NCBI GenBank assembly: GCA_039794845.1
Contig: JAUQVK010000037.1
Location: 1-64,000, forward strand
Direction: 5' to 3'
Source: Thermostichus sp. DRC_bins_24
GTDB lineage: Bacteria; Cyanobacteriota; Cyanobacteriia; Thermostichales; Thermostichaceae
DNA length: 64,000 bases
The notes below the pieces were generated by a model. That model was given only the letters and a program-made list of their open reading frames with translations. It was not told where the DNA came from and ran no database searches. Made by a program: the position numbers and the translations under genes. Position 1 is the first letter of the stretch. Every line of letters begins with the position of its first letter. Positions 7,924-43,435 of this stretch are shown here, in pieces.

Positions 7924-8847
7924 ATGACCAAGCCCAAAGCTGGGATCCTCTACAACGATGCCAAACCCGCCGCCAAGCGCAGCAGCGAAACTTTATCCCA
8001 CTGGTTTCAAGAGCAGGGCTGGGAGGTCTGTGCTGCCCCCAACTGGGGAGGGATCCTCGGCTACGCCAAGCCCGACAGCCCCATTTGCCTGACTAAGGTG
8101 GATAGCTTAGCCCCTGCTGGGTTTGATCAAAACATGCAGTTTGCGGTGGTGTTGGGGGGAGATGGCACCGTATTGGCGGCGGCTCGGCAACTGGCCCCGA
8201 AAGGGATCCCTTTGTTGGCGGTGAATACGGGCCACCTGGGCTTTCTGACGGAAACCTATCTCTCTCATTTGGAAGAGGCGGCGGGTGCAGCCATTGCCGG
8301 AGACTACACCTTGGATCGACGCAGCATGTTGCTGGTGCAGGTGTATCGAGACCACCACTTGCGCTGGGAGGTCTTGAGCTTAAACGAGATGGTCTTGCAC
8401 CGGGAGCCCCTCACCAGCATGTGCCATTTCGAGGTGACCATTGGGCAGCATTCTCCTCTGGATGTCGCTGCAGATGGAGTCATTTTGGCTACCCCTACCG
8501 GCTCCACCGCCTATGCCCTCTCAGCCGGGGGGCCGGTACTCACACCGGGGGTGCCGGTCTTGCAGTTGATCCCGATTTGTCCCCATTCCATGGCCTCCCG
8601 CGCCTTGGTTTTTGAAGATTCTGAGGAGGTGTGGATCAGCCCGGTAACGCCCCAGCCACTGGTGTTGGTGGTGGATGGCAACACCGGCTGTTACATCATG
8701 CCGGAAGACCAAATTCGGGTGGTGCGTGCCCCCTACTGGACGGATTTGATGCGCCTGAAACGGCCAGAATTTTTCCGCATCATGCGAGAGAAGCTGGGGT
8801 GGGGATTGCCCCACGCCTCGAAACCGACTTCGGTGGAGTTGCCCTAA
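7924..8847 (+). CDS. nadK: NAD(+) kinase
   Basis: [35 protein letters not shown]. Start set at ATG 7924. Confidence 0.95.
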
Positions 8848-10144
8848 AGGATGGTGTACTCATCGTAAAGGGATCCTTCGAGCAGCGCACCACTCAGGTT
8901 TGCCCCCCGCAGGTTGGTGCCCTGCAGATCCGTTTGGCTGAGGTTGGCCTCCTGCAAGTCCGCTTCTCGCAGATCCGCCCCCCGCAGATCCGCCCTAGCG
9001 AGGTTGGCTTGCCGCAGCCAAGCACGACGCAAATAAGCATCGGCAAGATGGGTTTGGGCCAATGGCCAAAGGGTACGCGGTTGGTTGAGGATCCGCCACA
9101 CCAGCTTCCATTTGGCATCCAGTTGGGTTTGGGCATCCAGGTGTGTGCCCCGCAAAATGGCTTGACCGAGATCCGCCCCCCGCAAATCCGCTCCGGTTAG
9201 TTGGGCACCCCCTAGGTGGCTTCCCCGCAGGTTGGCCCCCCGCAGATCGGCCCCCACCAGATGAGCACCGCGCAGATCGGATCCCTCTAAATCCGCTTGC
9301 ACCAGGTGGGCTTGCCGCAGGTCTGCCCCTTGCAAAGAAGCCCTGTGGAGAATCGCCCCACTTAAGTCCGTTTGGCTTAAAACCGCTCGATCCAGGTGGG
9401 CGGAGTGGAGGTTTTTTGCTTGAAATTGGGTGAGCGCTTGCGACGCGCTCGATCCAGGTGGGCGGAGTGGAGGTAGGCTGCGTGCAGGTTGGCCCCCGCC
9501 AGATCCCGTTCCACCAGGTGCTGCGCTTCTCGATCTTGGGAGACAATTTGCCACACCTGGCGCCACTTTTCGGCCATTTGGGTTTCGGGGGTGAGGTGAG
9601 CGCCTCGCAACTGGGATCCCCGTAAATCCGCTCCCGTAAGATCCGCCCGATGCAGATCGGCACGGGTCAGGCGGGCATAGCTGAGGTTGGCCCCCGTCAG
9701 GGTGGCCTCCCGCAAATTGGCTTCCTCCAAATCGGCATGGCTGAGGTTGGCCTGGCTCAAGTCTACTCCCTGCAGATGGGATCCCTCGAGGCGGCTGTAG
9801 CTGAGATCGGCATGGCACAGAATGGCCCCACTCAAGCGGGCGCTGCTTAAATCGCTACGGCTTAAGTTGGCTCGCCACAGGTTGGCCTGGCGTAGGTTAG
9901 CCCGACAGAGATTGGCCTGTTCTAGGTTGGCCTGGCGCAGGTTGGCATCCCAAAAGACAGTTCCCACCAAAATTGCCCGGTACAACACCACCTCACACAG
10001 ACGCACCCCCGAGAGATCCGCCCCGCTTAGGTTGATGTCGTGCAGATCCGCCTGGAGCAACCCAGGAACGCTCAAATCCAGCCGTTTGAAATCCCGCTCT
10101 CCTTGGGCGTAGCGGTGCAGCAATTGCTGAGCGGGCGTGAGCAT
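8844..10144 (-). pseudogene. Pentapeptide-repeat protein (412 aa if repaired), frameshifted by a 62-bp insertion
   Basis: The N-half MLTPAQQLLHRYAQGERDF... (ORF 9377-10369) and the C-half (ORF 8844-9818) are in different frames. Removing 9413-9474 fuses them in register: AYLHS AHLDR AVLSQ TDLSG. Confidence 0.85.
9384..9474. repeat. Exact 29-bp direct repeat flanking a unique 33-bp insert
   Basis: CGCTCGATCCAGGTGGGCGGAGTGGAGGT at 9384-9412 and 9446-9474; insert TTTTTGCTTGAAATTGGGTGAGCGCTTGCGACG at 9413-9445. Confidence 0.95.
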
Positions 10145-10146
10145 GG

Positions 10147-10566
10147 TCAGGGGGTGGCCAGAGGATCCTGACAGCGAGCGCAAACAGGATAGGTGGATTG
10201 ATACAGGGTGTCGCGGCGACCAAACCACTCGTAGCGGTGATCGCGGATGTGTTCGTAGCCCCGATCCCCCAACGGCTTCAGGCCGGGGATCCCGCGGTAC
10301 AGGGCCAACCACAGCCGGCCACCGGGCAACAGGTCTGCAATTTTCTCCGCCGCCGCGGATCCCTGCCAACGCTGCTCCGGGCGCTGCATATCAACCAGGA
10401 TCATGCCCAGTTCACACTGGTCTGGAGCAATATCCCACCGGGCCAAGGTGGGGGCATCCTGCATGGGGGCGTAACAAAAACGCTGTCCCCGATCCAAGCG
10501 TTCCAAAAGCTGTACCCCATTCGAGCAGAGATTGCACAGCCCATCGTAAATCACCAAGTAGAGCAT
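10147..10566 (-). CDS. DCC-family thiol-disulfide oxidoreductase (DUF393)
   Basis: N-terminal YDGLCNLC (DxxCxxC); C-terminal YEHIRDHRYEWFGRR. Confidence 0.9.
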   Translation of the reverse strand: MLYLVIYDGLCNLCSNGVQLLERLDRGQRFCYAPMQDAPTLARWDIAPDQCELGMILVDMQRPEQRWQGSAAAEKIADLLPGGRLWLALYRGIPGLKPLGDRGYEHIRDHRYEWFGRRDTLYQSTYPVCARCQDPLATP

Positions 10567-34536: not shown

Positions 34537-34544
34537 TCGGCTGT

Positions 34545-34680
34545 GTCGGCCAGCCTAATCCTGTTTGTTCTGCGAACCAGAGCGGGGGAACCATTTCGGG
34601 GGCCTACTCTGTGCGACTGCCAGAGGGAGCATCTCTTAGCTCTAGCCCGTCAGCTAACTCCGTCGGCATTAAGAGGTGGC
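34545..34680 (+). ncRNA. Cyclic di-AMP (ydaO/yuaA) riboswitch
   Basis: Conserved blocks in order: GCCTAATCC, GCGGGGGAACC, GGGGG, ATCTCT, GCCCGTCAGCTAACTCCGTCGGC, AAGAG. Located in the 5' leader of a transporter operon. Confidence 0.85.
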
Positions 34681-34839
34681 TATGAAGGTGTGGGTTTGTC
34701 TTCGCCGGACTTGACTTACCTTGACTAGATACCCAAGGGGCTGAGCACCATATCTGAGCACCATATCAGGGATCCACTGGCTTCCGTCAGAGATCCCTGG
34801 TTTCGCATAGTCACGTCTCTTCACCCCTCAGACCCAATT

Positions 34840-43363: not shown

Positions 43364-43435
43364 TGGGCTGTGCTGGAATTGAACCAGCGACTCCCACCGT
43401 GTCAAGGTGGTACTCTACCTCTGAGTTAACAGCCC
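43364..43435 (-). tRNA. trnV: tRNA-Val(GAC)
   Basis: GGGCTGTTAACTCAGAGGTAGAGTACCACCTTGACACGGTGGGAGTCGCTGGTTCAATTCCAGCACAGCCCA folds as a cloverleaf with anticodon GAC; CCA is not encoded. Confidence 0.96.

Follow-up and report, generated by a model that had tools for sequence, protein, structure and literature searches.

A spacer-sized insert with a repeat-length target duplication in a cyanobacterial pentapeptide-repeat gene: very probably the natural off-target product of a type I-E Cas1-Cas2 integrase

Introduction

Off-target integration by Cas1-Cas2 reportedly creates neo-CRISPR loci in the type I-E system of Escherichia coli, as Nivala, Shipman and Church are said to have described in Nat Microbiol in 2018. 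According to papers that cite this work, the off-target integrations were detected under Cas1-Cas2 over-production (PMC7054753; PMC11788318) and sites near IHF-like motifs were favoured (PMC9456107). For two other species, a citing preprint credits it only with ‘circumstantial evidence’ (bioRxiv 10.1101/148544). Our own literature search, outside which most subscription papers lay, yielded no natural case in which the source, the PAM and the empty allele had all been identified. Off-target type I-E integration is already known from laboratory E. coli, and natural cases with a protospacer, a PAM and an empty allele are apparently scarce.

The locus described here shares several traits with the neo-CRISPR loci of E. 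coli: a spacer-sized insert lies outside any array, the target duplication has the length of a repeat, the setting is type I-E, and such an event can disrupt genes and could in principle seed a new array. The E. coli loci arose in the laboratory under over-expression, whereas this one occurs naturally in a cyanobacterium and its empty allele, protospacer and PAM are identified. Moreover, E. coli sites are reported to have IHF-like motifs nearby, whereas no leader-like motif is found at the insert.

A further reference point is canonical type I-E adaptation at the leader-repeat junction in E. coli. There the duplicon is 28 nt long, the protospacer brings in the 29th base, the PAM-derived base is counted in the spacer, and the second cut is set at a distance of 28 nt independently of sequence (PMC3737337). 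Our locus agrees with the process in E. coli K12 in the 28-nt duplicon, the 33-34-nt spacer, the PAM-derived first base (AAG/CTT) and the 28-nt ruler. It differs in that the target is a protein-coding gene without leader, repeat sequence or hairpin, and the modal spacer is 34 nt in this clade versus 33 nt in E. coli K12 type I-E. There is also a likeness to the target-site duplications of casposons and insertion sequences (IS), in which a target is likewise doubled when the gaps left by staggered strand transfer are repaired. Such duplications measure about 14-15 bp in casposons and 2-14 bp in most IS. In both of these the insert is a whole element with its ends and a transposase, whereas here it is a 34-nt fragment of tnpB between duplications of 28-29 nt.

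Results and Discussion

A duplicated coding segment brackets a unique insert

The window analysed is a stretch of 64,000 nt (C37:1-64000) from genome G000, a scaffolded draft assembly of 115 contigs and 3,495,716 bases. Three Photo_RC genes are present in this genome, which is that of a hot-spring cyanobacterium; among 14 control genomes, Photo_RC matches only Synechococcus elongatus. The features of the locus are as follows.

8844..10144, minus strand: pentapeptide-repeat protein gene, disrupted (ATG at 10144, intact end at 8844; from the ORF list, in-silico removal and orthologs)
9447..9474, minus strand: 28-nt target, copy on the upstream (‘leader-side’) flank of the spacer, identical to 9385-9412 and the gene's own coding sequence
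9413..9446, minus strand: 34-nt spacer with G first (base 9446), unique in the genome, source matches 34/34 and 33/34
9385..9412, minus strand: 28-nt target, copy on the downstream flank of the spacer; the native G (base 9384, minus strand) comes next

Positions 9384-9412 and 9446-9474 form an exact 29-mer match, and the bases bordering the two copies are unequal (c/g before, t/a after). The intervening 33 nt (9413-9445) are found once in the 3.50 Mb genome. None of the 14-mers of this segment matches elsewhere in the genome, where blastn-short gives chance matches of 11-16 nt only, and no homology of the insert to the pentapeptide gene or to the rest of the genome was found. The initial annotation, which had described a 29-bp duplication around a unique 33 bp, is confirmed in its coordinates and in the genome-wide uniqueness of the insert. 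Its division into 29+33 stands as the apparent structure. However, the match to the source of the insert, presented below, spans 9413-9446 and is thus 34 nt long, one more than the apparent gap, and because of this the most coherent geometry is a 28-nt duplication with a 34-nt spacer and one ambiguous base. That base, 9446, is assignable to the spacer or to the target, and together with 9447..9474 it makes up the apparent 29-nt repeat. Read on the minus strand, the order is repeat (28 nt), G plus 33 nt, repeat (28 nt) and native G.

How unusual such a unit is can be gauged from a genome-wide scan, which the initial annotation had proposed, for direct repeats with an identity of at least 26/28, a spacing of 45-80 nt and a unique gap. 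Periods of 61-62 nt returned eight pairs within a CRISPR array on contig C13, the insert site and a singleton on contig C84, and nothing more. Pairs at periods of 69-75 nt are part of other CRISPR arrays, whose repeats measure 37-40 nt. The 22 control periods without CRISPR arrays (45-60 and 63-68 nt) gave ten matches, every one at a multiple of 3 (48, 54, 63, 66), of which eight were short-unit tandem repeats and two were imperfect 54-nt repeats; nothing comparable to the insert site was seen at these periods. Non-array repeat-spacer-repeat units with a period of 45-68 nt in this genome are confined to the insert site and one other. The repeat-insert-repeat structure is more than chance. No Rfam family matched at the insert locus or at the CRISPR arrays.

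These observations bear on Cas-independent repair, by which captured filler DNA, or template switching, would have supplied the insert at a staggered break or during replication slippage. The 15-nt pentapeptide periodicity within the gene favours slippage, and the capture of filler DNA is known in break repair. Yet the two copies stand in perfect register, the insert is without homology to gene or genome, and the control periods offer tandem repeats only. Furthermore, repair would have had to produce an insert length, a first base, a PAM context and a duplication length that all fit type I-E simultaneously, and we regard it as very unlikely.

The insertion is derived and splits a pentapeptide-repeat gene

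The pentapeptide gene is split into two overlapping frames on the minus strand, represented by ORFs 10369..9377 and 9818..8844. Its present product is 255 aa long and ends at a premature TAA (9379-9377), and the insert unit lies in the sense orientation of the gene. When 62 nt are deleted in silico, the ATG at 10144 opens a reading frame of 412 aa that is collinear with the orthologs in three relatives (G004, G008 and G006). The frameshift by 62 bases and the 412-aa ORF regained on removal, both proposed initially, are thus borne out by the ORF list, the in-silico removal and the orthologs. As predicted from the reading frames, the effect of the insertion is most likely a truncated pentapeptide-repeat protein and hence a gene knock-out.

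Comparison with orthologs, also suggested at the outset, reveals an empty site. Our ortholog search covered 31 genomes and found orthologs at 73-80% identity in four members of the same genus (G004, G008, G006 and G010). In all four, the alignment consists of two neighbouring pieces that share one repeat copy, and in a multiple alignment a single clean 62-column gap falls exactly at the site in 4/4 aligned orthologs. The empty form is also found in the environment. In assembled Logan contigs from three hot-spring metagenome runs of one study (X1, X2 and X3), contigs of 3/3 runs join 9383 straight to 9446 and omit the 62 nt. The X1 contig shows 0 differences from the window over 9000-9383 and 9446-9900, and the empty-site flanks in X2 show six. 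Because the flanks of the empty-site contigs match in this way, an identical or near-identical strain exists without the insertion. The two copies of the duplicated target are identical and the empty allele occurs with identical flanks in environmental populations; therefore, the insertion event is recent and polymorphic. Filled junctions are absent from the Logan contigs of X1-X3, which hold the empty allele only; since Logan contigs drop minor variants, they show that the empty allele is present and do not show that the filled allele is absent.

The spacer matches a phage-borne tnpB gene next to AAG

A search with the 33-mer, recommended in the initial annotation, gave no direct database match: there was no exact match in viral, metagenome or genome contigs, and blastn against plasmids found none. 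The tRNA-Lys regions of T5-like phages were considered as its source and rejected, their blastn matches (E=4 only) being judged chance. The source was nevertheless reached by way of a metagenome contig. A separate 584-nt contig of run X2 (depth 4.2) carries a 34/34 match to 9413-9446 in a non-CRISPR context; on the left the match ends precisely where the insert does, and on the right it takes in the ambiguous base. One 30-nt flank of this contig is found in two IMG/VR contigs, L027 and L028, which are 99.998% identical over 52,725 nt and represent one virus. The viral source was reached only through that flank; the second flank has no match in viral or metagenome contigs. The protospacer in both viral contigs is 33/34 identical to the spacer of the insert.

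In the X2 contig and the viral contigs alike, the two bases 5′ of the protospacer are AA, which with the first G of the spacer make AAG. Inspection of the source flank for a PAM, another check suggested initially, thus finds that an AAG-type PAM precedes the protospacer. From the conserved G of this clade's spacers and by analogy with E. coli, AAG would be the PAM of the clade.

The protospacer lies mid-ORF, at about codons 219-230 of a 417-aa TnpB (phrog_506, E 1.4e-93; PF01385 and PF07282, the OrfB_IS605 and Cas12f1-like TNB domains). The tnpB gene adjoins a gene for an IS200-like Y1 TnpA transposase, and the pair constitutes an element of the IS200/IS605 family. The genes surrounding this element encode phage functions, namely DNA polymerase A, RuvC, RadC, an M15 endolysin and minor tail protein L. 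Genome G000 holds only a 68%-identical remnant of the tnpB element, and relatives of the element in congeners reach at most 85% identity, none of them covering the protospacer at high identity. The insert is therefore foreign DNA from a mobile element and stems from within a gene; it is neither an IS end nor a paralog. A paralogous gene or an IS end as the origin, which had been named initially as the finding that would speak against integration, is not the case here: the spacer comes from the middle of a tnpB ORF on a phage contig. The source virus and G000 have no high-identity DNA in common. The 39 type I-E spacers described below, together with tiles of three other arrays, gave zero matches to the source virus, and a separate comparison of the G000 array with that virus gave none either.

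Since the insert comes from a tnpB gene, one might suppose that it is a footprint of the IS200/IS605 element itself, left by TnpA or TnpB activity. However, the 34 nt stem from about codons 219-230 of 417 rather than from an element end, no IS end or hairpin sequence is present at the insert junctions, and the genome has only the 68%-identical remnant of the element. To our knowledge, IS200/IS605 transposition leaves no long target duplication. We consider such a footprint exceedingly improbable.

The same metagenome data must be weighed against an assembly or library artefact, in which a chimeric join in the draft would have put part of a co-occurring element into the gene. All X1-X3 Logan contigs at the locus are of the empty form and none is filled, the assembly is a scaffolded draft of 115 contigs, and the protospacer-bearing element does co-occur in run X2. 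On the other hand, a chimera would not yield an exact 28/29-nt target duplication on both sides of the insert, nor would it trim the foreign piece to 34 nt starting at the G of AAG, nor reproduce the modal 62-nt period of the host array. Moreover, the source flanks and the gene share no sequence able to mislead a de Bruijn graph. An artefact is, in our estimation, highly improbable.

The insert has the dimensions of the host type I-E array

The C13 array (C13:8-759) contains 11 perfect copies of a 28-nt repeat that is type I-E-like and forms a hairpin of 7-bp stem and 4-nt loop (-12.9 kcal/mol). Its nine measurable spacers are 33 nt (3), 34 nt (5) and 36 nt (1) long, G is the first base in 8/9, and the period ranges over 61-64 nt with a mode of 62. 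The array extends past the contig end on its leader side. A nif cluster adjoins this array.

Among the 31 genomes, a type I-E cas1 scores above the model cut-off in six, namely 5/11 congeners and one confamilial genome. Four of these loci adjoin arrays whose repeat is identical to that of G000 or differs from it at 2-3 positions; in G005 a degenerate terminal repeat copy differs at five positions, G004 has one repeat copy only, and the stretch of G008 that was compared has none. Over G000 and four relatives (n=39), spacers measure 33 nt (6), 34 nt (19), 35 nt (7) and 36 nt (7), and 37/39 have G first.

The insert fits these dimensions. The duplication of 28 nt (29 apparent, one base being common with the spacer source) equals the repeat length of host and clade. 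The insert of 34 nt (33 if the common base goes to the target) lies within the clade range of 33-36 nt and equals its mode, seen in 19/39 spacers. Its spacer starts with G on the minus strand, as do 37/39 spacers of the clade, and its period of 62 nt is the modal period of the clade. The comparison of periods that the initial annotation had proposed therefore comes out in favour of integration, the type I-E-like array of the host having a mode of 62 nt, the same as the insert.

Other features of an array are missing from the unit. Identity between the target and the canonical repeat in register is 9-12/28, a level that 5-31% of random genomic 28-mers reach or exceed, so that the likeness is not significant. 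The flank upstream of the insert does not resemble the leader conserved in five relatives, and no leader-like motif was found there. The predicted folding energy of the neo-repeat is -3.8 kcal/mol (z -0.71), no better than shuffles, compared with -12.9 for the canonical repeat, and a hairpin of the Cas6e type is absent from it. Since the repeats of the unit are without this hairpin, no crRNA would be expected, and on the folding predictions the unit is most likely an inert scar and no working array. The proposal that a minimal array had been seeded thus retains the geometry of one repeat-spacer unit; it fails on the features of a functional array, hairpin and leader.

The proposed integrase was not found in the draft

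Two Cas1 matches exist in G000, both off the window contig. The cas1 on C89 adjoins an array with 37-40-nt repeats and the cas1 on C22 adjoins cmr2; the arrays of the genome other than that on C13 have 37-40-nt repeats and 69-75-nt periods. A type I-E cas3 is located on C42 (best model PRK09694, 410 bits), with degenerate repeat remnants directly after it, and cas3 and its upstream gene are conserved between G004 and G000 at 77%. The type I-E cas1 model TIGR03638 gives only a weak 34.5-bit partial match in G000, and this falls within the non-I-E cas1 of C89. The models for cas2e, cas6e and cas7e (PF09707, PF08798 and PF09344) match nothing in G000; these models are insensitive, and the E. coli control was also unmatched. 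Moreover, tblastn and blastn with the operon region of G004 found no counterpart in G000 of the genes from cse1 through cas2. The presence of cas1-cas2 in the host, on which the initial annotation had made its reading depend, is accordingly met with a divided result: two other cas1 genes and a type I-E cas3 are there, but type I-E cas1-cas2 was not found. The type I-E cas1-cas2 and Cascade genes were either lost after the event or missed in the assembly or binning of the draft. Their absence is unproven, because the assembly is a draft and the type I-E array runs off a contig end.

It may be asked instead whether a different integrase acted, be it the non-I-E Cas1-Cas2 module of C89 or C22 or an unknown enzyme. 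These two cas1 genes are the only ones found in the assembly, and the type I-E cas1-cas2 is the pair that was not found. However, the arrays linked to these modules have 37-40-nt repeats and 69-75-nt periods, so that a ruler-type enzyme would duplicate about 37 nt, and a 34-nt spacer that begins with G and is flanked by AAG is the signature of the type I-E arrays. A different integrase seems to us very unlikely.

Taken together, the array geometry, the empty site and the protospacer with its PAM support the neo-CRISPR interpretation put forward in the initial annotation, and the other arrays do not fit. Very probably a type I-E Cas1-Cas2 integrase placed the insert here, in a natural off-target (‘neo-CRISPR’) event. 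Against this reading stand the type I-E cas1-cas2 and Cascade genes missing from the assembly, the metagenome contigs with the empty allele only, the target's lack of significant likeness to the canonical repeat or leader, and the absence of any other spacer match between host and source virus. Which enzyme acted, and in what order the steps took place, we infer; the steps may have been as follows. A 34-bp prespacer would have been captured from the phage-borne IS200/IS605-family tnpB or from a near-identical copy, where it lay next to a 5′-AAG PAM, and the G would have been retained as the first base of the spacer. The integrase would then have bypassed the leader-repeat junction and made two opposite-strand attacks 28 bp apart within the pentapeptide gene. 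Filling of the gaps would have left two copies of the 28-bp target, in the order repeat(28)-spacer(34)-repeat(28), and an insertion of 62 bp. The precise duplication of a target that does not resemble a repeat would be explained because the 28-nt ruler, as known from E. coli type I-E, is independent of sequence.

The case links a product, its source DNA, a PAM, the ancestral allele and a matching host array in one wild population. If off-target type I-E integration is the correct reading, CRISPR adaptation can inactivate genes of its host in the wild and the 28-nt ruler operates on a target without repeat-like sequence. Moreover, single repeat-spacer-repeat units, the postulated seeds of arrays, would arise spontaneously. 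A simple screen suggests itself for genomes with a known array, namely a search for singleton duplications whose period equals that of the array.

A second unit of the same period

The singleton on C84 consists of identical 30-mers (C84:78691-78720 and 78753-78782) around a unique 32-nt segment, with a period of 62 nt, and is intergenic and close to a contig end. Either strand allows the unit to be read as 28+34 with G first, provided that two bases match by chance. Neither its spacer nor its repeat matched anything in viral contigs, genome contigs, phages, the source virus or 11 congeners. The 250 nt around the unit have no counterpart in 12 relatives, and no empty site was found there. A leader-like ‘CACTGAAAT.AGGA’ motif upstream of the unit was dropped; a blast with the leaders of five relatives gave many equal chance matches, and C84 was not among the best 30 matches listed for these leaders genome-wide.

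The unit is a candidate for a second neo-CRISPR birth, and one could then propose that off-target integration is a recurrent natural mutagenic cost in this lineage, with damage to host genes possibly favouring the loss of cse1-cas2. We put this forward tentatively and consider it rather doubtful. The genes from cse1 to cas2 are missing in G000 while cas3 and orphan arrays remain. If the proposal were true, the filled and empty alleles in hot-spring populations would be a natural system in which to measure the cost of the integrase, and the same populations would allow one to watch whether single units grow into arrays.

A second repeat-spacer-repeat unit

A further singleton repeat-spacer-repeat unit, the second such in the assembly of Thermostichus sp. 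DRC_bins_24, was found on contig C84, where an exact 30-nt duplication flanks a unique 32-nt insert.

C84:78691-78782 (locus L029:4692-4783), singleton repeat-spacer-repeat unit

Its period of 62 nt equals that of the window insertion, and the unit may represent a second neo-CRISPR. It is intergenic, with a repeated element 66 nt away at the end of the contig. Searches for its source gave no match in the viral contigs, genome contigs, phages or source virus, and no empty site was found among 12 relatives. Families of tandem repeats with 24-nt and 27-nt units occur at many loci and contig ends of this assembly, with many matches in congeners too; in one case the repeat makes up the 5′ end of an ORF resembling glutamine amidotransferase.

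C84:78512-78600, C88:5193, C10, C28, C45 and others, tandem-repeat sites

Source element and I-E loci

The protospacer of the window insert lies within the tnpB of an IS200/IS605-type element, located between a RuvC gene and a RadC gene in a phage genome represented by two IMG/VR contigs (99.998% identity).

Viral contig L027:4467-6162, IS200/IS605-type element, Y1 tnpA and 417-aa tnpB
C42:1-3067 (L005), region with I-E-type cas3, 910 aa
G004:C1:1484000-1502000 (L025), complete I-E operon
C13:760-11600 (L004), nif cluster: nifV, nifK, nifD, nifH, nifU, nifS, nifB

In the congener G004, cas3 is succeeded by cse1-cse2-cas7-cas5-cas6e-cas1-cas2, whereas directly after the C42 cas3 come 2-3 degenerate remnants of I-E repeats, beyond which the contig ends. 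The C42 locus has the appearance of an I-E operon that underwent deletion. The G004 operon ends in one repeat, without a spacer, just 22 nt past cas2; its cas3 region comprises three overlapping ORFs, which may reflect frameshifts. The nif cluster adjoins the trailer end of the C13 I-E-like array.

Lastly, an Rfam scan of the window identified two RNA features.

34542-34683, + strand, c-di-AMP riboswitch (56.9 bits)
43364-43435, - strand, tRNA gene (68 bits)
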